From assembly GCA_041663025.1 (NCBI GenBank), contig JBAZRE010000001.1, forward strand, positions 71,585 through 135,584: a stretch of 64,000 nt of DNA, written 5' to 3'. Below, piece by piece: positions 1,625-22,343 of this stretch. Within the stretch, counting starts at the first letter, position 1. Each line of letters opens with the position of its first letter. The notes below the pieces were generated by a model. The model was not told the origin of the DNA, ran no database searches, and saw only the letters and a program-made list of their open reading frames with translations. The stretch is from Minisyncoccota bacterium. Its GTDB lineage: Bacteria > Patescibacteriota > Minisyncoccia > Phycocordibacterales > Phycocordibacteraceae. The position numbers and the translations under genes are program-made.

Positions 1625-2650
1625 TTATACGTTAAAGAGCGGGCTAATAATTCCAGCGGTAGCGAGTGTGTTCGCGAGATTGAAGAGTGCAAGCGCAATG
1701 ACAATGATACCAGCCGTCTTGAAGAAAATCCCCTTCCACGACTTCTGCGCAATGTTGAGCGAGCCAAAGGAGAGCAGTGCGAGAACGGGGAGTGTCCCGA
1801 GAGCAAAGACGGTCATCGTCAACGCCCCTTGCACGAAACTGCCCGTCGAGAGTGAATAGAGCTGCATAGATTGGGTGAATCCGCAGGGCAAGAAGAACGT
1901 CCCGATACCAACCAAGAGCGGCGCGAGATAATGATCTCTTTTGCTCCCACCCACGACTTTCTTAGAAAAACTGGTGGGCAGCGTGAATTGTAGCTTCTTG
2001 GTGAAGTGAAAGACGTCAAGCAAGTTGATGCCGAGAGTGAGCATCACGAGCGCGACGATCCCTCCGAGCACAATGTTTGCGGTTAACCCAAGATGCAGTG
2101 AATTTCCGATAACACCCACAAGACCACCAAGGATAAAGAATCCGCCAAGTCGACCAACATGGAAGAGTGATTGGGTTCGCCACGTGCCACCCTCTCTTGC
2201 CGAGCTCGCAGAGAGCGAGAGGACGAGCCCACCAACAATCGCGAGGCATGAAGAGACCGAGGCAATGAGTCCAATAATAAATGCTGTACCGTAACTCACG
2301 CTTGAACCCGTAATGAGCGAGGTAAGCCCTGCCTTTTGTAAGAGCAGAAATCCTGCGATGAGTACGAGAGCGATCGGGAGCGCATACGCGAAGTCGCCCC
2401 ACCCGGCACTCGATATCGCCTTTTCTACTGAGAGTGTATAGCCATGGGTTCGTATCAGCTCGGTCAATTCTTGCGCAACTTCTTCAGGCGAACCATCAAA
2501 TTCACCGGTCACCGTCACTTGGCTGTTCGCTAGAGACACCTCCGCATTCTCAATGTGCGGGAGCTCCGTAAAGGTGTCTTCTATAAGAACCGTGCACGCC
2601 TTGCAGTGCATGCCGTTCACATAGAAAAGATGCGTTGTTTTATTGTTCAT
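1625..2650 (-). CDS. HMA (GMHCxxC) metal-binding domain fused to a polytopic CcdA/DsbD_2-like membrane domain; putative metal/thiol transporter
   Basis: The N-terminus carries GMHCKAC. At least six TM helices follow, with Cys in TM segments (SSCLA, LPCG). The start codon overlaps the copA stop. Confidence 0.6.
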   Translation of the reverse strand: MNNKTTHLFYVNGMHCKACTVLIEDTFTELPHIENAEVSLANSQVTVTGEFDGSPEEVAQELTELIRTHGYTLSVEKAISSAGWGDFAYALPIALVLIAGFLLLQKAGLTSLITGSSVSYGTAFIIGLIASVSSCLAIVGGLVLSLSASSAREGGTWRTQSLFHVGRLGGFFILGGLVGVIGNSLHLGLTANIVLGGIVALVMLTLGINLLDVFHFTKKLQFTLPTSFSKKVVGGSKRDHYLAPLLVGIGTFFLPCGFTQSMQLYSLSTGSFVQGALTMTVFALGTLPVLALLSFGSLNIAQKSWKGIFFKTAGIIVIALALFNLANTLATAGIISPLFNV

Positions 2651-4878
2651 AGATTTTTTGTTTTAAGGCGCAATGAATTAGAGACGACCGAAACACTCGA
2701 GAGCGCCATCGCGAGTCCTGCGAAAACTGGGTTCAAGAGTATCCCGAAGAATGGATACAGCAGGCCACTCGCCACCGGGATGCCGACGATATTATACGCG
2801 AACGCCCAGAATAGATTCTGCTTGATGCCGCGCATCGTGAATTTGGAGAGGCGAATTGCCTTCACCATCTTGCTGATGTCGCCATTCAAGAGTGTGATGC
2901 CTGCACTCTCTATTGCCACATCAGTGCCCGTTGCCATCGCGATGCCCACATCTGCCTGCGCGAGCGCCGGTGCATCATTGATACCATCGCCTGCCATAGC
3001 GACGATGTGACTTTGTGATTGGAGCTCTTTGATTTTGTTCAATTTGTCTTCTGGCATTACCTCAGCGACAATTTCATCTATTCCCGCCTGCTCCGCGATA
3101 TACTGTGCCGTTTGTGCATTATCGCCCGTGAGCATGACAACGCGGATGCCGAGCTTATGGAGATTCGCGACTGCCTCCTTTGCTTCTGGCTTTATCGCGT
3201 CAGCCACCATCGCGACAGCAAGTGTCTTCCCATTCGCAATGAGGATAACCGGTGTCTTCCCCTCAGAGGTGTCTTTATCTAGTGACTCAAAAGATGCTCC
3301 AAGTTCTCTCGCAAGTTTTTCGCTGCCAACGTGATATGTCACACCGCCTATTGCCCCGACAACTCCTTTACCTTTCAGCATTTCAAACCCCTCTACCGGC
3401 ATAAACGGAATATTCTTCTCATGAGCATACGAGACAATCGCGTGAGCTATTGGGTGCTCCGATTTGTTATCAAGTGACGCGAGAATTGAGGTGATATCAG
3501 CATCGCTCTTTTCAGAAAAATTCTTTAGTGACACCAACTCCGGTTTCCCTCTTGTTATCGTACCTGTTTTATCAACTACGACTGTGGTTACTTTGTGCAA
3601 TTTTTCAAGTGTGCTCGCATCCTTGATGAGAATACCTTCTTTTGCACCTTTTCCGACACCGACAATAATCGCGGTTGGCGTTGCGAGCCCTAGCGCGCAA
3701 GGGCATGCAATGACCAGCACTCCGACAAACGAGACGAGCCCGAGCGAGAGCGCCTGTGCGAATCCGAGATATGCCGCCCCAACAAAAATCCAGAGCCCAA
3801 GTGAGGCAAAGGCTATGACGAGCACAATCGGCACAAAGACGCTCGAGATCTTATCCGCAAGCGCCTGGATGGGTGCCTTGCTCCCTTGTGCATCTTCAAC
3901 CATTTGAATGATGTGCGCGAGCAGAGTCTCAGAGCCGACCTTCGTTGCCTTGAAGGTGAACGAACCGGTGGTGTTCAGTGTCCCTGCCACGACCTTATCG
4001 CCAACATTCTTCTCTACCGGCACCGGCTCACCAGAGATCATCGCTTCATCTATATAAGATGATCCCTCGGTGATAACGCCATCCACGGGGATTCTGCCGG
4101 CGGGCTTCACGATGATGAGCTCACCATGCACCACTTGCTCTATGGGGATCTCTATCTCGACACCATCGCGAATCACGAGCGCAGTCTTCGCCTGCAAATT
4201 AAGCAATTTTTCAATTGCATCGCCAGTCTTCAACTTCGCCCTCGCCTCAAGATATTTACCGAGCGAGATAAACGCGATGACGACGATCGCCACATCGAAG
4301 TAGGCGACCTCAACATTCACATACGCGCTCAATTGCTCGGCAAATACCGTGACGGCTGTGCTGTAGAGAAACGCCGCGGAGGTACCGATGCCTATGAGTG
4401 TGTCCATGTTCGCCTTGCCATAGCGCACAAATCGGTAGAAGCCGAGTAAATAGGGCTTGCCAACGAAGAAGAGCGCGTAGGCCGCCATAACTGCCAAGAG
4501 ATAACGGAGGAAACCGCTCACTGCCTCTGGAGCAGCAACCACGCGATTGAATTCTACGAGAATATCCCACGACATGATGAAGATGGCGATGACCGCCATC
4601 GGCATGATGGTGAAGATCTTCGTCTTCATTACAGCGAGCTCGGCAAGTTTCTCGCCCTTAGATTGATTCGTAACAAATGAATAGCCGAGTGGTTCTATAT
4701 TTTTAGAAAGTTGTTGTGAGTTCGTTTTTGTTTCATCAAAAACTACTTTTGCCGATTCATTTCCATAATTCACTTGCACCTCCTCAACTCCAACAACTTT
4801 CTTTAAAGACTTTTCAATGATGTGTGCACAGGAGGCACAATGCATGCCGCGAATCCGATAGGTTTGTGTGGTATTCAT
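2647..4878 (-). CDS. copA: Copper-translocating P1B-type ATPase
   Basis: The product carries an N-terminal HMA motif GMHCASCA, the CPC ion-transduction motif, the DKTGT phosphorylation site and GDGINDAP. Length is 743 aa. Confidence 0.95.
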   Translation of the reverse strand: MNTTQTYRIRGMHCASCAHIIEKSLKKVVGVEEVQVNYGNESAKVVFDETKTNSQQLSKNIEPLGYSFVTNQSKGEKLAELAVMKTKIFTIMPMAVIAIFIMSWDILVEFNRVVAAPEAVSGFLRYLLAVMAAYALFFVGKPYLLGFYRFVRYGKANMDTLIGIGTSAAFLYSTAVTVFAEQLSAYVNVEVAYFDVAIVVIAFISLGKYLEARAKLKTGDAIEKLLNLQAKTALVIRDGVEIEIPIEQVVHGELIIVKPAGRIPVDGVITEGSSYIDEAMISGEPVPVEKNVGDKVVAGTLNTTGSFTFKATKVGSETLLAHIIQMVEDAQGSKAPIQALADKISSVFVPIVLVIAFASLGLWIFVGAAYLGFAQALSLGLVSFVGVLVIACPCALGLATPTAIIVGVGKGAKEGILIKDASTLEKLHKVTTVVVDKTGTITRGKPELVSLKNFSEKSDADITSILASLDNKSEHPIAHAIVSYAHEKNIPFMPVEGFEMLKGKGVVGAIGGVTYHVGSEKLARELGASFESLDKDTSEGKTPVILIANGKTLAVAMVADAIKPEAKEAVANLHKLGIRVVMLTGDNAQTAQYIAEQAGIDEIVAEVMPEDKLNKIKELQSQSHIVAMAGDGINDAPALAQADVGIAMATGTDVAIESAGITLLNGDISKMVKAIRLSKFTMRGIKQNLFWAFAYNIVGIPVASGLLYPFFGILLNPVFAGLAMALSSVSVVSNSLRLKTKNL

Positions 4879-4884
4879 AAAAAA

Positions 4885-5148
4885 TTATTTACGCTTCAGG
4901 CGATATACCTTGAGTATCTCACCTATCGCGGTGCGCTCCTTCCCCTTCTTAATCTGGTGCACCACGCAGGTTCCAAGATGCTGCTCCATGAGAGCATCTT
5001 CAATACCACAGAGTGCCTGCTTCACCGCAGAGGTCTGCGTGATGACATCAATACAATAAGAATCCTTCTCGAGCATCTCCTGCAATCCACGTACCTGCCC
5101 CTCTACGATCTTCAATCGCCGAATCAATTTTGCTTTATTTTGTTTCAT
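4885..5148 (-). CDS. csoR: CsoR/RcnR-family copper-sensing repressor; start set at ATG 5148 rather than the upstream TTG
   Basis: Signature LIRRLKIVEGQVRGLQEML plus a Cys...His...Cys metal site. The ATG at 5148..5146 sits directly behind the -10 element and operator. The TTG-extended ORF would include the operator, so it was rejected. Confidence 0.85.
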   Translation of the reverse strand: MKQNKAKLIRRLKIVEGQVRGLQEMLEKDSYCIDVITQTSAVKQALCGIEDALMEQHLGTCVVHQIKKGKERTAIGEILKVYRLKRK

Positions 5149-5154
5149 CCGCCC

Positions 5155-5184
5155 ATGATACCCCCCAGGGGTATCATCCGTCAA
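5155..5184 (-). promoter_or_regulatory. Putative sigma70-type promoter of the csoR-copA operon (TTGACG-N18-TATCAT); likely leaderless transcript
   Basis: Minus-strand -35 at 5184..5179 and -10 at 5160..5155. The predicted TSS falls at about the A of the csoR ATG (5148). Confidence 0.4.
5157..5175. promoter_or_regulatory. CsoR operator: perfect inverted repeat GATACCCC-cca-GGGGTATC
   Basis: An 8 bp perfect palindrome of the TACCC/GGGTA type, as bound by CsoR-family repressors. It overlaps the -10 element and is immediately upstream of csoR. Confidence 0.6.
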
Positions 5185-5190
5185 GCCGTC

Positions 5191-5218
5191 TACTTGTGAA
5201 CAACAGAAAACCGCCTTC
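5191..5218 (-). terminator. Intrinsic terminator after tRNA-fMet (hairpin CCGCC-agaa-GGCGG followed by a U-run)
   Basis: Plus-strand sequence aaaaccgccttctggcggtttt; on the minus strand the hairpin is followed by UUUUCUGUUG. Confidence 0.5.
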
Positions 5219-5238
5219 TGGCGGTTTTCTGTATTACG

Positions 5239-5523
5239 TGGTTGCGGGGGTCGGAATTGAACCGACGTCTGGAGGTTATGCTTACCACTACAATTTTCAT
5301 TGCCCTTTGGTTTGTGGTCTGGACTATGCCTTCATCCGCCAACTGGTGGATGTCTACCGTCTAGTCTCTACACCTTTTCCGCCGAAAGCGGAACTTGGCT
5401 CGGTGTTGCCTTTTGCTATTCGCAAGAGGGGTTCGCCGAATTTGGCAGATGATCTTATGCGCAATTGCTCGCGCACACGCCCGAATACTCAAGCCTCCCG
5501 AGGTACCTCTCCTCTACCCCGCT
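5239..5523 (-). tRNA. Initiator tRNA-fMet(CAU) interrupted by a 211 nt group I intron in the anticodon loop
   Basis: The 5' exon (5523..5492) and 3' exon (5280..5239, CCA encoded) fold as a canonical cloverleaf. Initiator hallmarks are present: A11:U24, unpaired 1:72, anticodon loop CUCAUAA. The 3' half is nearly identical to E. coli tRNA-fMet. Confidence 0.75.
5281..5491 (-). ncRNA. Group I intron (no ORF) inserted after U33 of tRNA-fMet
   Basis: The intron follows an exon U and ends with G (omega-G). P1 can form from exon GCU plus intron UGA paired with the IGS UCGGGC, giving a splice-site U:G wobble. R/S-like elements GAGACUAG and CAUAGUCC could form P7. Confidence 0.6.
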
Positions 5524-5528
5524 CCTAT

Positions 5529-5557
5529 AGTTTACTCTTCTGTAATGGAATTGGCTA
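5529..5557 (-). promoter_or_regulatory. Possible promoter of tRNA-fMet (TAGCCA-N17-TAAACT)
   Basis: The -10 TAAACT ends 6 nt before tRNA position 1. The -35 overlaps the stop codon of the upstream gene. Confidence 0.3.
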
Positions 5558-6133
5558 GATGGCCTTCAATTCACGGAAAACATTCTCGTAGTGCGCAATG
5601 GTGCGGCGCGCAAGAGTTTCAGAGAGATCAAAGGCGGATCCTTGGTGTGCAATCTGATTGCGCACCTTGTGCGCCTCCCACGCTTCTTGAAGTGTTTTAA
5701 ACTCTGTTGGCTCAACACTCTTCAATTTCTCGCCAACACCGTCACCTACATATCCATTTTTTGTAAGCAGGTCGTCGAGCATGATATCTGCCTCAATGAT
5801 TGCGTCTCGCCACTCGCTTGTAGTCGCACCGTTAATAAGCGACTCGATATGTTGCCAGCGCAGATTTGTTCCACCAATAGCATCAGGCGCGAGAATGACC
5901 GTGCTGTAATACTTTTCTTCACGCGCACGCAATTCGAAGATCCGTATGGTGCAATACACAATAATAAAGAGCCCAATAACTGCGAGCGCGTAACCGATGA
6001 TGACGATCCAGATCCAAAGATGTGCGAGCCACGCTGAGAGTCCAGTTAGTCCTGGCGACCCATAACACGTGCCACGTAGACAATCGTAAAGGAGACGGTA
6101 CCAGAATTCGACATTGAGCTGATTCGCCGGCAT
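5555..6133 (-). CDS. Hypothetical membrane-anchored protein with C-terminal HEPN-like Rx4H motifs (VRNQIAH, RRTIAH)
   Basis: The product has a 32-residue hydrophobic segment (1-2 TM) followed by an alpha-helical C-terminal domain ending in RN-x3-H, as in HepT/Abi HEPN RNases. No partner gene is present. Confidence 0.5.
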   Translation of the reverse strand: MPANQLNVEFWYRLLYDCLRGTCYGSPGLTGLSAWLAHLWIWIVIIGYALAVIGLFIIVYCTIRIFELRAREEKYYSTVILAPDAIGGTNLRWQHIESLINGATTSEWRDAIIEADIMLDDLLTKNGYVGDGVGEKLKSVEPTEFKTLQEAWEAHKVRNQIAHQGSAFDLSETLARRTIAHYENVFRELKAI

Positions 6134-6139
6134 GTGCGT

Positions 6140-7558
6140 TTATTGTAGCGCGGATCCGGCAGTGAAAAGCGAGTTTTCCGCCTGGTGCGGGGCGGTGATG
6201 TGAATGCCAACCGGGAGCTGCTTCCCTTCCCTTTCTACCGTGCCCATCGGGACAGAGATCGCCGGCATGCCAGTAAGATTTGCAGTCACGGTGAAGATAT
6301 CTTCAAGATACATTGAGAGCGGATCATTCTTATCGCCAAACTTGAATGCTGGAGATGGCGTTGTTGGGAAAGCGATGACATCGCATGATTCAAACGCTTT
6401 TTCGTATTCGCGACGCAACACAGCGCGTGCCGTGTCCGCTTTATAGTAATACGCATCAATATAACCAGAAGAGAGCACGAACGTGCCTAGCAAGATACGT
6501 CGACGCGTTTCTTCACCAAAGCCCTCGGTGCGCGAATTAATATAATCATCAAGGAGAGTCTCCCCACGCGCCGCATGCCCGTAGCGCATGCCATCGAGTC
6601 GTGCGAGATTTGTTGAGACTTCTGCAGGCATGATGACGTAGTATGCCGCGAGCGCAGTGGTGCTCATGGGCAGTTTGATCTCTATAATCTCATGCCCTGC
6701 TTGTGTAAGTTTATCGAGCACCGTATCGAATGCGGCGAGCACATCTTTATCAACGCCCTCGCCAAGTAGATGATAAGGAACTCCTATACGAAGGTGTTTG
6801 GAGATTTTATGCACACCATACAATCCATTTGGAATGGTTGTGGAGTCGAGTGCATCTTTACCGCTAATTGCATCATGGATAATGCGCGCATCAGTAATCG
6901 ATTTAGCCAAAGGACCGATTTGATCAAGCGAGGAGCCCATCGCAATAAGTCCATAGCGCGAGACTGCACCATACGTTGGTTTAAGACCAACAATACCGCA
7001 ATGAGCTGCCGGCTGACGTACTGAACCACCCGTATCACTGCCCAGAGCTGCAATACAAAGATGTGCGGCCACTGCAGCGGCAGAGCCTCCCGAAGAGCCG
7101 CCTGGCACACGCGAAATATCATGTGGATTTTTCGTTGGGCCGAAGGCCGAATGTTCGGTTGATGAACCCATCGCAAACTCGTCCATGTTGGTACGACCGA
7201 GAAATAATGCGCCGGCTTCTTTTAATTTTTTAATAACCGTTGCGTCATAGGTCGCGCGATAATTCTCAAGCATCTTAGACGCGGCGCTCGCAATCTTCCC
7301 TTCTATCAGAATGTTGTCTTTAATTGCGAGCGGAATGCCGCAAAGAAGTTGGGCTGATTCGCCTTCAGTATCAATGCGTTTTTGCGCTGATTCAATAGCC
7401 GCATCATCTGCTTCAAAAATTTCAAGATATGCGTGCAGTTCTGGATTCTTCTCGTGCGCGGCAGCCGCGCACGCATCCCAGAGCTCACGTACTGAGCATT
7501 CCCGCGCGCGGAGCGCGCGGGCAGCTTCTACGATCGTCATTTCATTTAATTTAGTCAT
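6140..7558 (-). CDS. gatA: Glu/Asp-tRNA amidotransferase subunit A (amidase signature family)
   Basis: Amidase signature GGSSGGSAAAVAA and a Ser-cisSer-Lys context. The start was set at MTKLNEMTIVEAARAL so that it overlaps the gatC stop by 8 nt. Confidence 0.9.
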   Translation of the reverse strand: MTKLNEMTIVEAARALRARECSVRELWDACAAAAHEKNPELHAYLEIFEADDAAIESAQKRIDTEGESAQLLCGIPLAIKDNILIEGKIASAASKMLENYRATYDATVIKKLKEAGALFLGRTNMDEFAMGSSTEHSAFGPTKNPHDISRVPGGSSGGSAAAVAAHLCIAALGSDTGGSVRQPAAHCGIVGLKPTYGAVSRYGLIAMGSSLDQIGPLAKSITDARIIHDAISGKDALDSTTIPNGLYGVHKISKHLRIGVPYHLLGEGVDKDVLAAFDTVLDKLTQAGHEIIEIKLPMSTTALAAYYVIMPAEVSTNLARLDGMRYGHAARGETLLDDYINSRTEGFGEETRRRILLGTFVLSSGYIDAYYYKADTARAVLRREYEKAFESCDVIAFPTTPSPAFKFGDKNDPLSMYLEDIFTVTANLTGMPAISVPMGTVEREGKQLPVGIHITAPHQAENSLFTAGSALQ

Positions 7559-7844
7559 GCTGGATGATCTGTTTGACCGAGAGTGCGTCGCCTTCGCGCG
7601 AGGGAAACTGCTCAGCAAGCTTCTCAGTGTAGGCATGTGCTTGGTGTGGCTCGCCATCCACACGCATCACATTGCGTAATACAGGAGGCAGGATGCAGGA
7701 TGCAGGATGCAGGTCTAGCGTCTCGAGTTGTCCGATATACGAGAGTATCGCGTCAAATTCGTTCGTGAATTTCTCGAGTTCTGTATCCTCCACTCGTATC
7801 CGCGCGAGCGCTGCGAGCTTTTTAACGTCTTCTGTCGTCGCCAT
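7551..7844 (-). CDS. gatC: Glu/Asp-tRNA amidotransferase subunit C
   Basis: 97 aa, beginning MATTEDVKKLAALARIRVEDTELEKFTNEFDAILSYIGQL, typical of GatC. It is translationally coupled to gatA. Confidence 0.85.
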   Translation of the reverse strand: MATTEDVKKLAALARIRVEDTELEKFTNEFDAILSYIGQLETLDLHPASCILPPVLRNVMRVDGEPHQAHAYTEKLAEQFPSREGDALSVKQIIQHD

Positions 7845-7857
7845 TCTATGCACTTTA

Positions 7858-9876
<2,019 letters not shown>

Positions 9877-9881
9877 TTATT

Positions 9882-10343
9882 TCAGTACACGGAGCTGATA
9901 CCGCGTGATACGAAGCGCGCTCCACCAGGAGTCTCCACCGTGCCACACGGAACATCATATCCTTGTGAGAACATGTAGGTCGTCCCTGAAACATTTTTAT
10001 AGATTGTTATGTCTGCGCAACGAGCACCGTCACCAAGTGACAACCGTGATTTATAAATGACGTTTGACGCATCAGTGCTACTGGCGATTCCAAACTGACT
10101 ACCACCACAGAATAATTCCATCCCTCCACCAGATTTAAAACGATCACTCACATAGTCTTCATAGAGTGCACACTCAATACCGGCATCGGCAGCATAAAAT
10201 GCCTGTTGCGATTCGATAGCCGCAGAGGCGAGCAGTTGCTGTTTATACCCAAGCGAGCTAATCGAGAGACCGAGTGCCAGCATAACTGACATAAAAATGA
10301 CGGAAATCAGAAGTGCAAACCCTCTGTTATGTTTGTTTTTCAT
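9882..10343 (-). CDS. Minor pseudopilin (prepilin-type N-terminus RG|FALLISV, no Glu5)
   Basis: A class III signal-like N-terminus followed by a hydrophobic helix. First gene of a run of four pseudopilin genes. Confidence 0.55.
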   Translation of the reverse strand: MKNKHNRGFALLISVIFMSVMLALGLSISSLGYKQQLLASAAIESQQAFYAADAGIECALYEDYVSDRFKSGGGMELFCGGSQFGIASSTDASNVIYKSRLSLGDGARCADITIYKNVSGTTYMFSQGYDVPCGTVETPGGARFVSRGISSVY

Positions 10344-10939
10344 TGCAATGGCTTGAGATTGTCGGTAATAGTCACTGAATGTGGTCTACTGTGATAACTC
10401 CACGATACTTCTGAAACAATCTTCTCATCGGTTGTAGACATGCCTGTTACTTGAATCGTGCGAATAAAAGGCGTTATTGTATCGATCTGTTGTTGCGTAT
10501 AAATATCCATATCTGAAAGATATAGTGGCTCAGTACACACATCACCAGTACAGCCGGTGAGCTCGCCAGCCAGTGGGTCAAGTGTACATATTTTCGGTGC
10601 TTGGCATAAGGCCACTGATGCTAAAAAGTCGTCCCATGCGCCAGAAGCGTCTCCGCCGTTATACGCAGCAAGATACGCATTGTCGCGTAATAAACGCGCA
10701 TATTCTATACCTTCTTGTGCGAGGTAAGAGGCAATTAGTTGATCGCGGGCGACTCCTGCGGCGACCATTGAACTATTCGCGGCAAAAAAGGATCCGGAGA
10801 TCGCGAGGGTGAGAATGGCTATAGCGACCATAGTTTCAACAAGGGTGAAGCCGCCGTAGTGAGCAGGAGGCAGGAGGCAGGAGGCAGGATTCGAATTCCT
10901 GCTTAGTGCTTGCTGCTTACTGCTTACTGAGTTGCTCAT
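10340..10939 (-). CDS. Pseudopilin with prepilin cleavage/methylation motif GG|FTLVE; unusually long 28 aa leader derived from a dispersed repeat
   Basis: Carries the GFTLVETMVAIAIL N-methylation domain. The first ~24 codons are encoded by the GCAGGAGG palindromic repeat at 10862..10930. Confidence 0.6.
   Translation of the reverse strand: MSNSVSSKQQALSRNSNPASCLLPPAHYGGFTLVETMVAIAILTLAISGSFFAANSSMVAAGVARDQLIASYLAQEGIEYARLLRDNAYLAAYNGGDASGAWDDFLASVALCQAPKICTLDPLAGELTGCTGDVCTEPLYLSDMDIYTQQQIDTITPFIRTIQVTGMSTTDEKIVSEVSWSYHSRPHSVTITDNLKPLQ
10862..10930. repeat. Imperfect palindromic dispersed repeat, copy A (agcaggaggcaggaggcaggaggcagga-ttcgaa-ttcctgcttagtgcttgctgcttactgcttactg), inside the 5' end of a pseudopilin ORF
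   Basis: A G-rich arm and a C/T-rich arm centred on GAATTC; a related tandem 7-mer (cctgcat x3) occurs inside gatC at 7672..7712. Confidence 0.5.
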
Positions 10940-11457
10940 AGGTCAATACCGCGCATGGCGGCTCCAGTTTCAACCGTAAAAGATTGTGGATCCCCGTGAC
11001 CAGAAGAAACTGTGCCGGAAACGGTGATGACCACATATGGTTGAGAACTGTCACCAGTCGACGTACCAGAGACATAAAAAGTCAGAGAAGAAACAGTAAC
11101 CGAGGGATCGGTGAGATTAGCAGAGACGCTACCTTGTGTTTGTGTAATGGAACCTCCAGAGAGCTCATAGGATACTACATTCCCTTTTGAGTTTCTTGTT
11201 GAGAAGCTGTCTCCCCCAGAACAATCGTCCCCAGTTATTGCAGGACAGTGATATTCTGTGCCAGTACGGATCGTGCGCGTCATCGTCTCAAGTGCGAATG
11301 AGAGGCTACCAATTCCGGTTGCAGTGCCTTGGGCCTTTCGTGTGAGATCTATCATTACGATATATGCACCTGAAGCAAGGGTCATCACAAGAGCGAAGAG
11401 TCCGACTGCGATAATAAGTTCAACGAGCGTGTATCCTCTTTTTATTTTCATAGGCAT
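10936..11457 (-). CDS. Pseudopilin (KRG|YTLVELIIAV)
   Basis: Canonical type IV prepilin N-terminus. Confidence 0.65.
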   Translation of the reverse strand: MPMKIKRGYTLVELIIAVGLFALVMTLASGAYIVMIDLTRKAQGTATGIGSLSFALETMTRTIRTGTEYHCPAITGDDCSGGDSFSTRNSKGNVVSYELSGGSITQTQGSVSANLTDPSVTVSSLTFYVSGTSTGDSSQPYVVITVSGTVSSGHGDPQSFTVETGAAMRGIDL

Positions 11458-12146
11458 GATGTGGCACTTGCGGTTATTCTCCCTGATTGGTCAACTGAGA
11501 CAAAATAGGTGCCGCCTTGTGGTGAAGCAATCGTCAAACATACTTTCGTTATCAGCTTCGAGTACGAACCGTTTGTACTGGTGAACACATCAGGGTTTGG
11601 GCGTGAGAACACGATGTCGAGCGAGGACAATCCCACACTGGAACATGACCAACTAACGTTAAAAACACAGAAGTCGCTCACTGTAATGCCATTCCCGAGC
11701 GTATACTCAACCACTTTTTGATCTTGAGCTGCTTGGTAGGCGCAGTCGCCAGGCTGGGCGTCAGGTGAAGTTATGAAACTCCTTGATACATGACAATTGT
11801 TTTCATCTGTAGTTGGAGATGGATAAATATCCGCAAAAAGGGTGAGTGAGCTAGGTGTCGCGGATTCGAAATGTACACCGTATCCAGTATTCGTGGATAT
11901 GATGACGCCCTCGTTTGTGCGCACACGACTGCCGAGACCATAGGTTTGTGCATTACGCAGAGTAAGCGCAATATCGTATGCGGTATTCTCGAGAATAATC
12001 GTCTTATTAAAAGAGCTCTGACCGGTCATGACGACTACCATAACGAACGTTATAATCGCCATTACGACGACGAGTTCTATAAGCATGAACCCGGCACCAG
12101 ATCTCAGTGGCTGGATAACGTCGCGATGAAGATGAAAGGATTCCAT
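11448..12146 (-). CDS. Pseudopilin (GAG|FMLIELVVVM)
   Basis: Prepilin-type N-terminal domain with Glu5. Confidence 0.6.
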   Translation of the reverse strand: MESFHLHRDVIQPLRSGAGFMLIELVVVMAIITFVMVVVMTGQSSFNKTIILENTAYDIALTLRNAQTYGLGSRVRTNEGVIISTNTGYGVHFESATPSSLTLFADIYPSPTTDENNCHVSRSFITSPDAQPGDCAYQAAQDQKVVEYTLGNGITVSDFCVFNVSWSCSSVGLSSLDIVFSRPNPDVFTSTNGSYSKLITKVCLTIASPQGGTYFVSVDQSGRITASATSCL

Positions 12147-12871
12147 TGGGTAAAGTATGCGAGAAGGAAGCCGGCGGCCAGATACGGCGCGAACGGCACC
12201 TCAACTCCCATTCTAGAGCCACTAGGCCTCCCCGCCAATATGATGATGCCGATAACTGCACCGATCCAGAATGAAAAGATGAACCCGGAGAAAGCGGCAG
12301 ATCCGGTGAGCAACGCTAGACCGAAGGAGAGAGGTGCGTCGGCGAGACCCATTGCACGACCGCGGGAAAAAACATGAATGAGTGCGAGCGAAAGTGCAAT
12401 AAGAAATGCTATGAAGAAAGAATTGAAAAAAGAGGTGTAAGATGGTGCGATAAGAAAACGAGTTATCACACTCGTGACAACAAAGAGAATAAGAAGTACC
12501 GAAGGCAATATCTGATGTGCAATGTCATAGAGGACGAGTGCGAGGAGTAGTGAGAGAGAAAGAAGCATACCAAACAACGCACTGGTGAGACCGAGCTTTA
12601 AATATGAGAGGAGAAAGAGGCCACCAAGCAGAAGTTCAGTAAGCGGCGCATACCATGAGATCCGCGCGCCACAGCAGCGCGCCCTCCCTCCCCAGCTCAC
12701 GAAAGAAATGATGGGCATAAGAGCAAGAGATGAGAGTGGCGCATCACACGCATCACAACGAGAACGTCCGATAACAAATCCCTGGCCCGTATAGAGACGC
12801 GCAACGAGCACACCGATAAAGCTCGCGATGATCGTGCCAAGTGCAAAAAATGCAATGGAAATGGGAAGCAT
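12104..12871 (-). CDS. pilD: Prepilin peptidase (A24 family)
   Basis: Polytopic membrane protein with a CxxC...CxxC zinc-binding tetrad (CDAC...CCGA) and a conserved Asp-containing loop. Confidence 0.8.
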   Translation of the reverse strand: MLPISIAFFALGTIIASFIGVLVARLYTGQGFVIGRSRCDACDAPLSSLALMPIISFVSWGGRARCCGARISWYAPLTELLLGGLFLLSYLKLGLTSALFGMLLSLSLLLALVLYDIAHQILPSVLLILFVVTSVITRFLIAPSYTSFFNSFFIAFLIALSLALIHVFSRGRAMGLADAPLSFGLALLTGSAAFSGFIFSFWIGAVIGIIILAGRPSGSRMGVEVPFAPYLAAGFLLAYFTQWNPFIFIATLSSH

Positions 12872-14556: not shown

Positions 14557-15762
14557 CTACATTGCACCGGTAAGGTTATAGATTGGGAGAAGTACGGCGG
14601 CAATAAGTGTCCCAACACCAAGGCCGAGAAGCACGACCATAATTGGCTCGATAAGGCCAACCAGCGTGTCAACGGCATTGGTAACCTCACGGTTATAAAA
14701 CTTGGCGAGTGTTAGGAGAATCTTCCCGAGCTCACCGGTCTCCTCACCAACTTTCGTCATCGCAATCATAATGCCCGGTATTTCAGGATGTTTGCCAAGA
14801 GCATCTGATATTGATGAACCACCCTTTACGTCTGTTCCGACATCAGTCATCGTCGCCGCGTAGATAGAGTTCCCCACGACCGAACCAGTAATCTCAATAG
14901 CCTCAACAACCGAGACGCCAGAAAGGAGCATGGTGGAGAAGTTGTCCGCGATGCGTGAAAGATAGAGTTTCTTATATAAGTCGCCTACATACGGTACCGA
15001 AAGCTTCAAACCATCAAGCACCATCTTGCCGTGCTCAGTCTTCTTGAGCTGCCACCCATAGAAGCCGAGCGCGACAAGCGCGATAAGTAAGAAGGCACCA
15101 TATTGCACAAGGAAGTTCGAAAAACCAATAACAATGGCTGTGTAGAGCGGTATGGGCTGGCCTGAATCAATCAAGACAGCACTAATCTTCGGGATAACGA
15201 GCGTGAGCATAAGCGCCATCACGGCGAAGAAGACCACGATGACAAAAATAGGATAGATAAGTGCATTCTCGGCTTTGCTCACGATGTCATAGGTGCGATC
15301 GAGGTAATCGGCGAGATATAAGAAGGTCTCTGACAATTTACCGGACTCTTCGCCCGCACGAACCATATTCACATAAAAAGATGAGAAGACCGCGGGATGC
15401 TGTGCAAGAGCCTTGCTGATAGGACTCCCGCCTTGGATATCATCCGCGACAGCAGAGAGAACGGTTGCGAGGCGCTTGCTGCCAACTTCAGCGGCTAGCA
15501 AACGGAATATGCGGAGTGAGGGTACTTGCGCTTCAAAGAGGGTCGCTATCTGACGCGAAAGGATGACAATGTCTTTGTTTGAGATCCTATCGAAGAGAGA
15601 AATATCAAGATCAAACAATGAACGCTTCTCGGCCGGTCCAATGATCGAAATAATGAGATTGCGTCGCTGAAGCGCAGAGACGGCAACCTCTTGAGAAGAA
15701 GCCTCAATAGTCCCGTCGCGCTCGTGCCCATCTTGATCAATCGCGTGGTAGGTGAATAACAT
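14557..15762 (-). CDS. pilC: Type IV pilus platform protein (GspF/PilC family)
   Basis: 401 aa with two T2SSF repeats and three TM segments. Confidence 0.9.
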   Translation of the reverse strand: MLFTYHAIDQDGHERDGTIEASSQEVAVSALQRRNLIISIIGPAEKRSLFDLDISLFDRISNKDIVILSRQIATLFEAQVPSLRIFRLLAAEVGSKRLATVLSAVADDIQGGSPISKALAQHPAVFSSFYVNMVRAGEESGKLSETFLYLADYLDRTYDIVSKAENALIYPIFVIVVFFAVMALMLTLVIPKISAVLIDSGQPIPLYTAIVIGFSNFLVQYGAFLLIALVALGFYGWQLKKTEHGKMVLDGLKLSVPYVGDLYKKLYLSRIADNFSTMLLSGVSVVEAIEITGSVVGNSIYAATMTDVGTDVKGGSSISDALGKHPEIPGIMIAMTKVGEETGELGKILLTLAKFYNREVTNAVDTLVGLIEPIMVVLLGLGVGTLIAAVLLPIYNLTGAM

Positions 15763-15771
15763 ATTTAAATA

Positions 15772-16833
15772 TCATAAATAGTGTTCAAACGTTTTTGGAT
15801 CCATCGTGTGTTCATAGGCGTGTTCAATGGTGACCTCGCCTCGGTGCACAAGCTCGGCGAGTGAACGATCTAGGTCAATCATACCCTCCTGAGAAGAGGT
15901 CTGGACCACTGCACTAATCTCGTGCGTCAACCCGTCACGAATTAGTGTGCTTATAGCGTTGTTGTTAATCAGGAGTTCGTAGGCCGGAATAAGACCTCCG
16001 GAGACACGCGGAATGAGCCGCTGGGAAAAGATACCCGCGAGAGACCCAGCCAATTGCACGCGCACTTGGGCTTGTTGTTCTGGAGGGAACATGTCGATGA
16101 TACGGTCGATGGTCTGCGCGGCGTTGTTTGTGTGAAGAGTTGAAAAGACCAAGTGGCCAGTCTCAGCGGCAGTGACCGCAGCTGAAATTGTCTCGTGGTC
16201 GCGCATTTCACCAACCATAATAACGTCCATATCCTCGCGAAAGGAGTTTTGTAATGCGGCATGAAAATCAGGCGTATCAATATGAACTTCGCGTTGATGG
16301 ATAAGCGACTTGTTCGGTGTGAACACATACTCAATAGGGTCTTCGATAGTGAGAATATGCTCGGCTCGTGAATCATTGATACGATTAAGCATAGCGGCAA
16401 GCGTAGTTGACTTGCCGTGCCCCACTGGCCCGACTACGATGAAAAATCCCTGTTTGCGCTGTGTGAAAACTTCGAGTATCGATGGCAAGTTTAATTCTGC
16501 AAATGTTTGAGCGATATGCGGTATAAGCCGGAGGGCGATAGCGGTTACTCCTTGTGCACAGTATCCATTGACGCGGAAACGCGCGTCCTTCTTGTGTTCA
16601 TACGAGAGGTCAATGGATTGGCTTTCTTTGAATATATTCCAACGGTGTTCTGGCACAATACTCTTGAGCATTGTTTCAGCTTCTTCGCCAGTGATAGCTG
16701 GATACTTCGTGAGTGGAACGAGTGTGCCAGCAACACGAATCATCGGCGGTCCTCCGGCATACACATGGAGATCCGAGCCGCCTTCTGCGACGACGCGGTC
16801 AAGAAGCTCTCCGAGACGGGCATTAGCAGTCAT
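15772..16833 (-). CDS. pilT: Twitching-motility retraction ATPase
   Basis: 353 aa with Walker A GPVGHGKSTT, Asp box and His box, typical of PilT. Confidence 0.88.
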   Translation of the reverse strand: MTANARLGELLDRVVAEGGSDLHVYAGGPPMIRVAGTLVPLTKYPAITGEEAETMLKSIVPEHRWNIFKESQSIDLSYEHKKDARFRVNGYCAQGVTAIALRLIPHIAQTFAELNLPSILEVFTQRKQGFFIVVGPVGHGKSTTLAAMLNRINDSRAEHILTIEDPIEYVFTPNKSLIHQREVHIDTPDFHAALQNSFREDMDVIMVGEMRDHETISAAVTAAETGHLVFSTLHTNNAAQTIDRIIDMFPPEQQAQVRVQLAGSLAGIFSQRLIPRVSGGLIPAYELLINNNAISTLIRDGLTHEISAVVQTSSQEGMIDLDRSLAELVHRGEVTIEHAYEHTMDPKTFEHYL

Positions 16834-17216
16834 GGTTTCCCTTCTATTATGCGCAGAGTCTCTGCAAGGACCTCAGAAGGAACCGCAGACGCTTTTATGA
16901 TATAGCCGGCGACCGCGAGCTGCTTCGCCTTCTCAATATCGGAGCTCTGACCCTGATTCGATAGAATGATGATCTTTGAGTCTTTTGCCAATTTTTCCTT
17001 GCGTATCGTCTCAAGCGCTTCAAAACCACTCACGCCAGGCATAATGATGTCGAGTAGGATGGCATCTGGCGCACTGGTATCTTTATTCCTAAGTGCAGAC
17101 AGGAGGTCCTCTCCACCACCGAACACACTCACCTCATGACCGGCGTTTTTAAACTTAACTGCATACAAATCAAGAAGGAACTTGTCGTCATCGACTAGAT
17201 AAATGTGATAGGCCAT
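16830..17216 (-). CDS. Single-domain response regulator (CheY-like REC only)
   Basis: Begins MAYHIYLVDDD, with phospho-acceptor Asp in LLDIIMPG and Lys in IILSNQG. It sits between pilB and pilT, and its stop overlaps the pilT start. Confidence 0.75.
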   Translation of the reverse strand: MAYHIYLVDDDKFLLDLYAVKFKNAGHEVSVFGGGEDLLSALRNKDTSAPDAILLDIIMPGVSGFEALETIRKEKLAKDSKIIILSNQGQSSDIEKAKQLAVAGYIIKASAVPSEVLAETLRIIEGKP

Positions 17217-17242
17217 TGGTAGATAGTATACACGCTTCAGCG

Positions 17243-19030
17243 TCAACTTATTTCCTCCTCGGGGAAAAGTTCCCCGCCGAGCGTATTTACCTCTTCAAAA
17301 GGTATCTCACCCGCAAGGGCCTTTATAATGGCATCTTCGCGCATGGTGAACATGCCCCCAGCGCGCGCGGCGGCATAGACATTCTCCTCAACCGGATTCT
17401 TCAATACTACTTGTTCAATATCCTTATTCATACGAAGTATTTCAAAGACAGCGGTACGACCGCGCGTGCCATTCGGGCTCTCAGCTGTTGCAGCGGCATG
17501 ATAGAAGTCCTTAAATGGAGGTAGGTTCCCTCTGTACTCTTTTGGCAAGTCCGCAAATTCACGCTCAAGGAGTATCTTGAGACTATCCGTAACTGGGAAA
17601 GGTTTCCCTCCACCTTCAGAAAACTTTCGGACGAGACGTTGTCCGATGACCGCAACGAGTGTTGGGGCAATAAGGAACGGGTCGACACCCATGTCGACTA
17701 GACGAGGAATCGCACCAGAAGCAGTATTGGTGTGAATAGTTGAGAATACGAGGTGACCGGTCAATGCCGCCTGAACAGCGAGTACCGCCGTCTCCTTATC
17801 ACGAATTTCTCCAACCATGATGATGTCAGGATCTTGGCGCAATACAGAGCGAAGTCCGCTCGCAAAAGTGTAACCAATCTCTGGTCGCACCTGACTCTGC
17901 GATACATTCGGGATCTCATATTCGACAGGATCTTCGAGCGACACGACGTTTGCCTTCTCGCGATCAAGCTCAGAAAGCATAGCGAAAAGTGTCGTCGACT
18001 TACCAGAACCAGTAGGGCCGGCTATGAGAATGATGCCATAGGGGGCCTTCACCATATCTCGCACGGCAATGAGATGAGTACTGGTGAATCCGACCGACTC
18101 AAGTGTTGCGGTCTTGGCTGATTGATCAAGAATACGCATCACCACCTTCTCACCATATTCAGTCGGGAACGTTGACACACGGAAGTCGATGCGGCGATTC
18201 TCTACAGTCGCCGAAAAACGTCCGTCCTGTGGTTTCCGCTTTTCATCGAGACGCAGTTTCGCGAGAATCTTGATGCGGGCAACAACCGCTTCGTGCACTT
18301 TTACCGGTAGTTCCAAAGAAGTGTGGAGGTCGCCGTCCATACGGAAACGAATGCGCGTTTTGGTTGGCGATGGCTCAACGTGAATATCTGACGAGTGCCC
18401 TTCAATGGCATACCGCAACATCGTTGAAACGATCTTTGTCACCGGAGCATCTTCCTTCAAGGTCTCATGGGGACCAGTTAGAACGAGTGATTCTTCGCTC
18501 CAGGCGGCTTCTTGTTGTGGAGTTGGCTCGCCACCCTTCTGTGCAGAGGCATCTCCAGGCGGCTTCGAGGTCGTTTCGTATTCAAAGAGCGCTTTGCCGA
18601 TTTCGCCAGAGAGATTTTCATACGCATTGAGTACTCGATCGAAATCTTCTTTTGTGATGAGAGAAATTTTATAGGGAATGCCTATTTTCCCAGAGATGAA
18701 CTGCAGTGCGTCGAGGGCTTCAATGTTGTCGGGATCGGTAATACCAACCTCGAGCGCGCCATCCACCTTCGCGAGCGGTACAAACCCATAATGTCGAGCT
18801 GAATCGATGGGCACATAGCTGAAAACAGAATCGTCAGCTGGCGGATCACCAAGAAGTCGCGTTGGGAGTCCATATTCCTTCCCCGCTTCGGCAAGTGCGC
18901 TCTCAAGTTTTACTCCGTGTTCAGAGAGCACTTCAGCAAGTGGACGCCCTTTCGCGAGATCCGATTCTACGATTGCTCGGTCGCTTGCAGAAAGGATTCC
19001 TTTATCAACAAATAATCCTAAAAGATTCAT
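17243..19030 (-). CDS. pilB: Type IV pilus assembly ATPase (GspE/PilB family)
   Basis: 595 aa with a T2SSE_N domain and Walker A LIAGPTGSGKSTTL. Confidence 0.9.
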   Translation of the reverse strand: MNLLGLFVDKGILSASDRAIVESDLAKGRPLAEVLSEHGVKLESALAEAGKEYGLPTRLLGDPPADDSVFSYVPIDSARHYGFVPLAKVDGALEVGITDPDNIEALDALQFISGKIGIPYKISLITKEDFDRVLNAYENLSGEIGKALFEYETTSKPPGDASAQKGGEPTPQQEAAWSEESLVLTGPHETLKEDAPVTKIVSTMLRYAIEGHSSDIHVEPSPTKTRIRFRMDGDLHTSLELPVKVHEAVVARIKILAKLRLDEKRKPQDGRFSATVENRRIDFRVSTFPTEYGEKVVMRILDQSAKTATLESVGFTSTHLIAVRDMVKAPYGIILIAGPTGSGKSTTLFAMLSELDREKANVVSLEDPVEYEIPNVSQSQVRPEIGYTFASGLRSVLRQDPDIIMVGEIRDKETAVLAVQAALTGHLVFSTIHTNTASGAIPRLVDMGVDPFLIAPTLVAVIGQRLVRKFSEGGGKPFPVTDSLKILLEREFADLPKEYRGNLPPFKDFYHAAATAESPNGTRGRTAVFEILRMNKDIEQVVLKNPVEENVYAAARAGGMFTMREDAIIKALAGEIPFEEVNTLGGELFPEEEIS

Positions 19031-19033
19031 TAC

Positions 19034-19333
19034 TTAAATTTCGCTTATTCCAGAAATAGGAGCGAATGGATCAAGGCGACCTGATGCTTCAGGGGCAATC
19101 GAGATAGTGAAATCGATCAGTGCATTGAAACGAGAGTCTGAAAAGATGCCGGTATCAAATGATATTGACTTCAATTCTCCAACTAGAGTCTGAAATTTAG
19201 TTTGTGCCTGATTTGATGACCCGCTCACAATCAAAGATGGCTGCTCTGTCCCGGTGAAGAAATACCAGTAACTAAATGCTGCAGCGATCAGTATGGCTAT
19301 TAAGAATGGGGTGACACTGGTTTTAGGTTTCAT
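19034..19333 (-). CDS. Small bitopic protein, possible PilP-like component (RLDPF motif)
   Basis: A single N-terminal TM helix followed by a periplasmic beta-rich region; located between pilO and pilB. Confidence 0.35.
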   Translation of the reverse strand: MKPKTSVTPFLIAILIAAAFSYWYFFTGTEQPSLIVSGSSNQAQTKFQTLVGELKSISFDTGIFSDSRFNALIDFTISIAPEASGRLDPFAPISGISEI

Positions 19334-19350
19334 AGTGGTACAGAGGCTTT

Positions 19351-19905
19351 TTAACGCAGCCAGTAAAGACGAAGATTTACGTTGTAGGTATACACACCTG
19401 TGCTGGAGCCCTTTACAACGATATCTTGTACATCAAGTAAGCGCTCACTCGACTCAACTTCTTTAAGAAAACTCTGCAGTGCTGTGTAGGTTCCAACAGC
19501 CGAGAGAGACATGTCAGCCGAACCTATCGGGTTCGTCACCGATGCTGGTAGGATTCCTGTAGAATCCTCAAGACTTTCTGAATTCGCTGTAACATCAACG
19601 TTAGAGAGCGAGATCCCTGTGCGTGCGGCAAGCGCGTTCAGGTTGAGAATAAGACCAACGTTATCAACGGAATCAGGCAAGAATACACTAAGCCGTTTGA
19701 TATCATTTGTGTTGATCGCGTTGCGCGCAGAAGAGAGTTGGTCTTGTTGCGCCCTATATTGACCCGCGGCAACGAGTGCCTGATCATCGGCAATGATGTT
19801 TGCTTTTGTTGTTGCTATTGAACCAGTCCATGCCGGATTGATATAACCAAAGAATATGCCTATGGCGGCAAGGAAGGCTATGGTGGGAAGAATTTTGTTA
19901 CTCAT
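19351..19905 (-). CDS. pilO: PilO-like pilus assembly protein
   Basis: N-terminal TM helix, then a coiled coil and an alpha/beta domain. Operon context is pilM-N-O. Confidence 0.55.
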   Translation of the reverse strand: MSNKILPTIAFLAAIGIFFGYINPAWTGSIATTKANIIADDQALVAAGQYRAQQDQLSSARNAINTNDIKRLSVFLPDSVDNVGLILNLNALAARTGISLSNVDVTANSESLEDSTGILPASVTNPIGSADMSLSAVGTYTALQSFLKEVESSERLLDVQDIVVKGSSTGVYTYNVNLRLYWLR

Positions 19906-20567
19906 GGTGTCGAAGTGGCAGTAGAAGTTGCCACCGGTGTAGTTATGCGCGGGGCTGCCACGCGTGACTTAGGAGAGAAGGCGATAAGCTCACGGTCAAG
20001 ATAGGCTGAGAGAGCGAAGGATACCGAATTGTTCTTTGGATTCACGACAATATCTGAGAAGATAGCGTCTTTGATGCGTCCATCTTTGGCAAATGCGGTT
20101 GAGGCAGCAGCTAGTGCATTGAAGTTCTTCGCGGTGCCAGAGCCTTCGAGCTTCACAGTGCCTGTGCTATCGACTGAGAGATGGAGCGACAAGAAACGAG
20201 TGTTAGAGGGTATGAGCGTTTCGAGGAGCGTGAAGAACCCAGAGAATGCCGTATGGTTCGTGAGGAGTTCTTGACCTGAAGTAAGACGGTTGCGAAGACG
20301 TACAAAATTCTCAGCCGCCTCAGAATCAATCGTCTTCTCTGCTTGAGCGAGTTCTGCATCCTTTGCAGACTGATTTGAAGCAAGTATACGACCATATGCA
20401 AAGATGCCGATCGCGAGCAAGAAAACAACACCCAAGGTGATGTACGCGAAAAAATTAAAAATGCTAGTCAAGTCAACGCGGAGACCATGCGTTGCTGTGG
20501 TCGAGTGAGGAACAAAGGACGTTGGTATGTTCGAGGGAAGGGCCATTTCTCTTTCAGTATACGACAC
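19902..20567 (-). CDS. pilN: PilN-like pilus assembly protein
   Basis: Short cytoplasmic N-terminus, a TM helix and a periplasmic domain; immediately downstream of pilM. Confidence 0.55.
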   Translation of the reverse strand: MSYTEREMALPSNIPTSFVPHSTTATHGLRVDLTSIFNFFAYITLGVVFLLAIGIFAYGRILASNQSAKDAELAQAEKTIDSEAAENFVRLRNRLTSGQELLTNHTAFSGFFTLLETLIPSNTRFLSLHLSVDSTGTVKLEGSGTAKNFNALAAASTAFAKDGRIKDAIFSDIVVNPKNNSVSFALSAYLDRELIAFSPKSRVAAPRITTPVATSTATSTP

Positions 20568-20608
20568 CTACGCAAGTAGTGTGCACAACCTCTGTGCAAA
20601 ACGTTTGC

Positions 20609-21724: not shown

Positions 21725-22343
21725 GCTACGTTGGCTCGACTTCCTCTTTCCTCCACGTGTGGATGAAAACGCATTGCGTAACATCTCCCCCGATGAGTTT
21801 CTCACATTCGTCGCTCCGCGACTCGCGCCAGTAACCAGACCAGGCACGGTCGTATTACTTCCCTTCTCTAATCAGCTGGTACGGTCTGCTATTCACGAAG
21901 CCAAGTATCGCGGGAGCGAGCGCGCCTTCACCCTCCTCGCGCTTGCGCTCGCTGAATACCTTCGTGACTTTGATGATGAAAATTACGGACTTCGTAAGTC
22001 CGTAATTATCGTACCGGTGCCATTGGGGAAAGAACGGCGAAAAGAGCGTGGGTTTAATCAATCTGAAGAGATCTCCAGACGCGCGATTAAAGAGCTCAAC
22101 ATAACAATCGATACAACACTTCTTGAACGAACGCGCGAAACAACATCGCAAGTCTCACTCGCTCGAGAGAAACGTGAAAAGAACATGCGCGGCGCGTTCA
22201 AAGCAATTCGCCCAGCTGACACAAATAACACCTACGTGCTCATCGACGACGTCACCACCACCGGCGCCACGCTCCAAGCCGCCATTGATGCTCTCAAAGA
22301 AGCTGGCGCCGAGAACATCATCCCGCTCGCCCTTGCTCATTAA
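21723..22343 (+). CDS. comFC: ComF-family phosphoribosyltransferase-like competence protein
   Basis: PRTase motif VLIDDVTTTGATL. The start was set at internal ATG MLRWLDF, since the upstream part overlaps pilM. Confidence 0.75.
   Translation: MLRWLDFLFPPRVDENALRNISPDEFLTFVAPRLAPVTRPGTVVLLPFSNQLVRSAIHEAKYRGSERAFTLLALALAEYLRDFDDENYGLRKSVIIVPVPLGKERRKERGFNQSEEISRRAIKELNITIDTTLLERTRETTSQVSLAREKREKNMRGAFKAIRPADTNNTYVLIDDVTTTGATLQAAIDALKEAGAENIIPLALAH

Follow-up and report, generated by a model that had tools for sequence, protein, structure and literature searches.

Nearly all known prokaryotic nucleases with a HEPN domain come from toxin-antitoxin, CRISPR, restriction and abortive-infection systems. 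In addition, three groups of bacterial membrane-associated HEPN proteins have been distinguished, including DUF4145 with a 'WP' helix and Abi2/Swt1, in which a conserved globular all-alpha domain leads into a single conserved membrane helix, and such proteins have been proposed to function in the stimulus-dependent degradation of RNA (Anantharaman et al. 2013, PMC3710099). The gene described here behaves, in contrast to the nucleases of those systems, as a resident of its genome. It encodes a protein of 192 amino acids and is located on the minus strand of a stretch of 64,000 nucleotides from a Minisyncoccota bacterium (GCA_041663025.1, contig JBAZRE010000001.1, positions 71,585-135,584), the whole of which is called the window in the following. 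Our analysis suggests that its product is probably a resident, lineage-wide, membrane-tethered HEPN endoribonuclease which faces the cytoplasm and which is possibly controlled by a signal.

The described membrane-associated groups share their layout with the family of the window protein, as in both cases a HEPN domain with an intact Rx4-6H motif, cytoplasmic or predicted to be so, is found C-terminal to a single membrane helix; for the described groups it has been proposed that they sense a stimulus at the surface and cleave RNA at the membrane (PMC3710099). The window family, which behaves like a resident of one bacterial class, differs from them in threshold, membrane helix and N-terminus. 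Its weak sequence matches do fall on the Swt1-like HEPN domain and on DUF4145, but the curated score of neither Pfam family is reached. The WP signature of the DUF4145 group is absent from the helix of the window protein when this is read directly, and where the Swt1 group has a globular helical domain at its N-terminus, the window family carries either SH3 domains or a tail of some 30 residues. Moreover, the DUF4145 and Swt1 groups are sporadic and linked to conflict systems, whereas the window family is fixed in its place and diverges together with housekeeping genes.

HepT toxins (SO_3166, PDB 5yep; 7ae2; 8xdj) are soluble, whereas the window protein is membrane-anchored and only 7-11% identical to them; a HepT/DUF86 model gave no Pfam match for the window protein, and DUF86 is absent from the families matched below threshold. 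HEPN-MNT systems contain an MNT partner, whereas the neighbours in the window, and likewise in related loci, are gatA and a tRNA gene. As for defence of the Abi/RnlA type, no family of PADLOC-DB was matched at E <= 10 and no Abi or RnlA Pfam match was obtained. Anti-phage HEPN proteins are expected to be sporadic and variable in location (islands, prophages or plasmids), in contrast to the window gene, which is fixed after gatA (155 of 164 loci). The eukaryotic Ire1/RNase L KEN domain and C6orf70 share the logic without belonging to the family, since they too are membrane-held HEPN nucleases with an outward sensor and control by self-association (PMC3710099). KEN is however fused to a kinase or pseudokinase, while the window protein contains no kinase domain and has no detectable sequence relation to it, and activation by dimerization is presumed here. 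RNase Y of Firmicutes has a layout like that of the window protein, with an N-terminal membrane helix and a cytoplasmic endoribonuclease domain, but it uses KH and HD domains, the folds of which are unrelated to HEPN. Full-text literature searches for HEPN together with Patescibacteria, Candidate Phyla Radiation, transmembrane or SH3b found no description of the family.

In detail, the gene and its product show the following features:

5555..6133 (stop codon 5555-5557), minus strand: open reading frame (ORF) of the membrane-anchored HEPN-domain protein, 192 residues, from the ORF list
6050..6133, minus strand: N-terminal segment, residues 1-28, a short amphipathic helix predicted outside the cytoplasm (alignment A1 and models)
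5936..6040, minus strand: hydrophobic membrane helix, about residues 32-66 (hydropathy and AlphaFold)
5864..5905, minus strand: low-confidence linker, residues 77-90 (pLDDT <50 at residues 79-88 and 80-87 in the two models)
5558..5863, minus strand: HEPN-fold domain, residues 91-192, with helix 1 at 91-100, helix 2 at 105-125 (E114, D116), an insert at 126-147, helix 3 at 148-167 and helix 4 at 172-188
5645..5662, minus strand: RNQIAH, residues 158-163, predicted catalytic Rx4H at the end of helix 3 (conservation and the HEPN definition in PMC3710099)
5591..5608, minus strand: RRTIAH, residues 176-181, a second R-x4-H that is not conserved (homologue alignments)

The C-terminal domain corresponds to what has been defined as HEPN, namely a bundle of four helices, the second and third of which are separated by an insert, an Rx4-6H motif that ends helix 3, N, D or H as the polar residue following the R, and an acidic residue on helix 2, often in the form E-x3-K/R (PMC3710099). 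All four parts of this definition were found in the 192-residue protein, the polar residue being the invariant N159; the E-x3-K/R form itself is absent (E114-ADI-M118). Two AlphaFold models built from different alignments give the HEPN four-helix fold and agree on the helices of the domain, including a short insert helix at 132/133-139, and in the second model the pLDDT is 90-95 over the domain. The fold matches are specific and reproducible and include HepT toxins, AbiA, LsoA, RnlA, HepS, 8xdj, Csm6, YutE and HI0074, as well as Roquin, sacsin and kanamycin nucleotidyltransferase, whose HEPN domains are non-catalytic. When 36 diverse members were compared with Pfam, the families matched most often below threshold were HEPN_Swt1 (11 members, best E 7e-4), HEPN_RiboL-PSP (5), HEPN pEK499_p136 (4) and DUF4145 (3, best E 1e-4). 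That curated models are matched below threshold only points to a new family inside the HEPN superfamily and not to one outside of it. We conclude that the C-terminal 100 residues are the HEPN domain of a family for which no curated model exists.

The first of the two motifs is strikingly conserved. None of the 120 close homologues lacks RNxxxH, and the motif recurs in each full-length sequence among the 150 diverse representatives listed. In alignments A2 and A4 (down to 31-50% identity), H155, R158, N159 and H163 do not vary. On helix 2 (105-125), E114 is conserved at 90% or more, and D116 is invariant in alignments A1 and A4 and conserved at 90% or more in A2. The second motif was rejected as a catalytic site and is a chance feature, since R....H at residues 176-181 occurs in 28 of the 120 close homologues and in none of 145 diverse representatives, where the position of the H is mostly taken by L; among the close homologues R177 is conserved and position 181 alternates between H, R and Q. 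When the protein was shuffled, at least one R....H arose in 25% of the shuffles, two or more in 2.6% and RNxxxH in 1%. Being this frequent in shuffled protein, the R....H pattern alone is weak evidence.

An earlier reading of the same DNA, called the original prediction below, had placed an ORF at 5555-6133 and assigned it to HEPN. The ORF is there, on the minus strand, and the fold matches and the invariant RNxxxH support the assignment. Both R-x4-H motifs had been taken for the HEPN catalytic signature, which holds for RNQIAH and not for RRTIAH. The hydrophobic anchor of 32 residues which it had noted is real as well, but starts near residue 30 and not at the N-terminus.

The product is 100% identical to a hypothetical protein from Paceibacterota and has no Pfam, NCBIfam or PADLOC match at E <= 10. 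In the PHROGs only the hydrophobic helix was matched weakly, by a holin (E 0.016) and an unannotated family (E 0.051). About 30 residues stand ahead of the membrane helix. Hydropathy windows cover residues 28-70 with a core of about 32-66, and AlphaFold yields one continuous helix from 29/30 to 76/77 with a pLDDT >90 across residues 41-70. The membrane helix has the sequence AWLAHLWIWIVIIGYALAVIGLFIIVY, in which G47-Y48 and Y60 are conserved. The linker behind it differs in sequence and length across the alignments. The helix in the N-terminal segment was modelled with modest confidence at 3/8-19 in the two AlphaFold models; N7-x-E9-Y/F10 is conserved in this segment, N7, E9, R13, Y16, C18 and C23 are invariant in alignment A1, and an LN-x-EY motif is widespread among family members with one membrane helix. 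The pair Cys18/Cys23 is confined to the closest clusters, a Kaiserbacteria-like subgroup, and was rejected as a family-wide redox sensor for this reason.

Concerning the topology, lysine and arginine are in excess behind the membrane helix: in a set of 146 representatives, the stretch of 15 residues that follows the last such helix contains 3.46 of them on average, as against 0.86 before it, and the bias towards the C-terminal side is found in 93%. Because of this excess, the HEPN domain is predicted to face the cytoplasm, with the N-terminal tail outward.

Many relatives have two membrane helices separated by 100-300 residues, a stretch built of one to three bacterial SH3 repeats. SH3_3 was detected in one of them (P0220) with an E of 2e-6, precomputed SH3_3 matches exist for several homologues, and a repeated G..G....GP....G.RWW.V....GWV motif is seen in alignment A3 of longer relatives. 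In such longer members (P0220, and P0288 at L165:7001-8347) the SH3_3 repeats stand ahead of the same HEPN domain, which is a sensor-like layout, and the genes of the SH3-ectodomain forms likewise begin 12-87 nt past gatA. The window protein, having a tail of about 30 residues without SH3, is the minimal form of the family.

In total, more than 2,100 homologues of the protein were found at E <= 1e-3, and a profile search of 1.84 billion cluster representatives yielded a family of 2,691 clusters (50% identity), of which 550 reach E <= 1e-30. The homologues bear the names Kaiserbacteria, Nomurabacteria, Parcubacteria, Paceibacterota, Minisyncoccia and Patescibacteria, and the family is seen here only in Paceibacteria-type Patescibacteria. 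One homologue (P0060) is named 'AC78 family protein' at its source, a name backed by no model. Many third-party assemblies bear the label 'uncultured Candidatus Saccharibacteria bacterium'; they contain loci with 56-71% identity to the Paceibacterota/Kaiserbacteria-type block, and the label is probably generic.

The second line of evidence is the setting of the gene, for which related loci were taken from 80 species genomes, 80 metagenome contigs and exact-protein lookups. Upstream of the HEPN gene the window contains:

6140..7558, minus strand: gatA, amidase subunit of Glu/Asp-tRNA amidotransferase (ORF; Amidase Pfam in syntenic genes)
7551..7853, minus strand: gatC, in the same operon-like block (ORF; GatC Pfam in syntenic genes)
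7858..9864, minus strand: ligA, NAD-dependent DNA ligase, at the head of the ligA-gatC-gatA-HEPN block (ORF; ligase Pfam in syntenic genes)

The start of gatA at 7558 was placed where the homologue alignments begin, and the ATG of the HEPN gene lies 6 nt past the gatA stop codon. In all of the 155 loci mentioned above gatA is directly upstream on the same strand, and the remaining nine are truncated just upstream of the HEPN gene; the distance from the gatA stop to the HEPN gene start has a median of 26 nt (82 loci). The ligA-gatC-gatA-HEPN block is conserved in Kaiserbacteria-like genomes, while ligA is missing from it in a Nomurabacteria-type locus (L166), and the order is kept even where the HEPN protein is 37-46% and LigA 43-53% identical to the window copies. 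When identities to the window copies are compared, those of the HEPN protein correlate with those of its neighbours, with r 0.73 for GatA, 0.80 for GatC and 0.87 for LigA, and its rate of divergence resembles that of GatC. Downstream of the HEPN gene, the tRNA excepted, gene content varies across the loci.

No family member was found in 2.9 million viral contigs. The fixed place after gatA, the divergence in step with the neighbours and the lack of PADLOC and viral-contig matches are typical of a gene inherited vertically under purifying selection rather than of a conflict system. It is probably co-transcribed with gatC and gatA, in this lineage also with ligA, and transcription perhaps extends to the downstream tRNA; in the gap that separates the stop codon of the HEPN gene from the tRNA, a pattern scan detected nothing resembling a terminator. 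An antisense ORF at 5591-6037 (plus strand) was considered as a hidden antitoxin and rejected, as the open stretches antisense to the gene are not conserved (median 111 codons, minimum 47). In one metagenome-assembled genome, WY4.bin53, two ligA-gatC-gatA-HEPN blocks are present on different contigs (L065, L076), with HEPN proteins 68% and 56% identical to that of the window, which suggests a bin in which two organisms are mixed and not paralogues.

Taken at its most plausible, the protein would be a single-pass inner-membrane protein with a short N-terminal tail outward and a C-terminal HEPN domain of about 100 residues in the cytoplasm. H155, R158, N159 and H163 would, together with E114/D116 on helix 2, most likely form the site of a metal-independent endoribonuclease. 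RNase activity is predicted because the active-site residues are invariant, and families that have lost the activity typically lose the motif (PMC3710099). Other HEPN enzymes suggest that such a site would work as a dimer. The activity is probably controlled through the membrane and the outer segment, that is, the SH3 domains in longer relatives and the short tail in the window protein; such control, and a pairing of the HEPN domains, is suggested by the architecture and by the earlier proposal for other membrane HEPN proteins.

Several points weigh against a resident HEPN ribonuclease. No curated HEPN model reached its threshold, neither with the window protein nor with the 36 diverse members searched against Pfam, the E-values of Foldseek against the PDB are weak (best 0.1), and profile searches of PDB sequences with alignments A1 and A2 returned no relatives, the matches to membrane helices and a BAG domain being due to chance. 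The status of a core gene is deduced from synteny and co-divergence, and the loci concerned were retrieved via the gene itself; gene order may also stay conserved without any functional link. In addition, a constitutively encoded HEPN RNase would somehow have to be kept harmless.

The gene behaves like a resident of an entire class of ultra-small bacteria that depend on hosts and have hardly any genes to spare. Should its product be an active RNase, it would offer a handle on RNA turnover or on the control of translation in Patescibacteria, for which this biology is almost unexplored, and the forms with an SH3 ectodomain would represent a simple bacterial case of an outside signal activating an RNase inside. 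A more far-reaching version of the same idea, which we regard as doubtful, is that of an essential, signal-gated membrane RNase as the bacterial counterpart of Ire1/RNase L. Here the outward part would sense the envelope or contact with a host cell, via cell-wall-binding SH3 domains in the long forms or via the Cys-bearing tail in the window protein, whereupon the HEPN domains would pair, cut specific tRNAs or mRNAs and reset translation; a tRNA-linked role would then be reflected in the fixed position of the gene in the gatB slot, flanked by gatCA and the initiator tRNA.

The gene could instead encode a tRNA-directed enzyme tied to the GatCA pathway, which would cleave or check the initiator tRNA, the neighbouring array or mis-acylated tRNA-Gln/Asn. 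This is rather unlikely in our view, but it would account for the constant position of the gene in the gatB slot, with gatA on one side and tRNA genes on the other. The downstream side of the locus comprises:

5238-5523, minus strand: initiator-like tRNA(CAU) with a 211-nt group I intron (Rfam, and ARAGORN on the spliced sequence)
5523-5492, 5491-5281, 5280-5241 and to 5238, minus strand: exon 1, intron, exon 2 and CCA of this tRNA
5205..5235, minus strand: hairpin and T-run after the tRNA, cagaaaaccgccagaaggcggttttctgttg, a possible terminator of the whole block, found by direct reading and absent from the pattern-scan list

In the Nomurabacteria-type locus the genes read SecDF-LemA-M48 peptidase-gatC-gatA-HEPN, so that gatC-gatA-HEPN persists where LemA-M48 replaces ligA. 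Several other Patescibacteria (L168 and L170-L172 among the comparison loci) have LemA-M48-gatC-gatA-gatB-dnaE, and another reads gatC-gatA-gatB. Since the same LemA-M48-gatC-gatA context holds gatB in these lineages, the HEPN gene occupies the gatB position. A tblastn search with a GatB query recovered GatB in 5 of 5 loci of the gatCAB type, where Pfam GatB_N/GatB_Yqey confirmed it in the called genes. With the same search gatB was not found within 6-8 kb in 166 of 167 HEPN-gene loci, nor in the 64-kb window. The lone locus with gatA-gatB-HEPN (L075, 3174-6570) has a divergent gatA of 38% identity. The exchange of gatB and the HEPN gene at one operon position raises the question of how the tRNA amidotransferase is organised in such genomes.

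The neighbouring tRNA fits the tRNA-directed reading as well. Most loci with enough downstream sequence have a 72-nt tRNA(CAU) after the HEPN gene, usually 30-200 nt past its stop and, where both exons were matched, on its strand in 86 of 90 loci. Its initiator marks, read from the ARAGORN fold, are a 1:72 mismatch (A or C opposite A), A11:U24 and a G:C-rich anticodon stem. In distant lineages (L123, L128, L132, L143, L147, L148, L155) the initiator-like tRNA leads an array on the same strand, which contains an elongator tRNA-Met (75 nt), tRNA-Asp, tRNA-Thr(GGU) and tRNA-Thr(CGU), and tRNA-Cys in L148. Moreover, several HEPN nucleases, such as PrrC and RloC, cut tRNA (PMC3710099). On the other hand, the case is one of gene order alone, membrane anchoring has no obvious role in tRNA amidation, and the gatA-gatB-HEPN locus shows that the gene is not simply an alternative to gatB. 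GatB chemistry lies beyond the reach of a HEPN domain of 100 residues, which counts against the idea too. The tRNA/Gat neighbourhood is a lead to the substrate and not evidence for it.

The intron of the window tRNA was identified as a group I intron by Rfam (RF00028, 44.4 bits, E 1e-9). It is inserted between U33 and C34; ARAGORN misses the unspliced tRNA and calls the spliced one tRNA-Met(cat). Of the 90 loci with both exons, 35 have the intron (202-341 nt) and 55 lack it, so that it varies among close relatives. Some array tRNAs are also flagged as intron-bearing by ARAGORN (tRNA-Asp in L123, tRNA-Arg in L150).

The original prediction correctly placed the gene between an intron-containing tRNA and gatA, without an adjacent MNT or antitoxin gene, as was found in the window and in the related loci. 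It had suggested a solo membrane-tethered toxin or abortive-infection RNase. On such a reading the HEPN domain would be a suicide nuclease set free upon phage attack or stress, the antitoxin being absent, encoded elsewhere or built in. Most prokaryotic HEPN proteins do belong to conflict systems (PMC3710099), the nearest structures include HepT toxins, AbiA, LsoA, RnlA and HepS, and DUF4145 and pEK499_p136, which were matched below threshold, are linked to defence or plasmids. We nevertheless consider a toxin improbable, as the place after gatA is fixed across very divergent genomes, the divergence tracks that of housekeeping neighbours (r 0.73-0.87), and no partner gene lies on either side, nor a conserved antisense ORF that could act as antitoxin. 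A PADLOC model match is lacking as is any member in the viral contigs, and the PHROG matches are limited to weak ones of the hydrophobic helix, such as that to a holin.

Equally improbable appears a catalytically silent HEPN domain serving as a membrane-bound binding or scaffold module, as in nucleotidyltransferases, sacsin and Roquin, all of which are represented among the structural matches. HEPN domains without catalysis have typically lost Rx4-6H (PMC3710099), whereas here R, N and H are invariant family-wide and are accompanied by a second His and the acidic residues on helix 2. Finally, that the gene encodes an ordinary small membrane protein with a coincidental R-x4-H and no HEPN domain, for which the frequency of R....H in shuffles, the chance nature of the second motif and the absence of a matching curated family model could be adduced, is largely refuted and deserves hardly any credence in view of the specific, reproducible fold matches, the invariant first motif and the convergence of sub-threshold profiles on HEPN families.

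With regard to the surroundings of the block, a run of short ORFs lies upstream of ligA in the window (9882-12871, minus strand), the counterparts of which carry an N_methyl pilin motif elsewhere, with a prepilin peptidase in L167, and type IV pilus/type II secretion genes (T2SSF, PilM) are found at 14557-21847 (minus strand); the order pilin-ligA-gatCA-HEPN repeats in related loci. RNase J and a second beta-CASP/metallo-beta-lactamase RNA nuclease are encoded at 28304-30262 (plus strand) and 36435-37826 (minus strand), which provides context for models of RNA decay. Directly past the tRNA, reading of the sequence identified a small CsoR-like repressor ORF (4885-5184, minus strand) and a heavy-metal P-type ATPase with a GMHCASC metal-binding motif (2647-4878, minus strand), a pair that is close to the block in few loci only (L020, L067).

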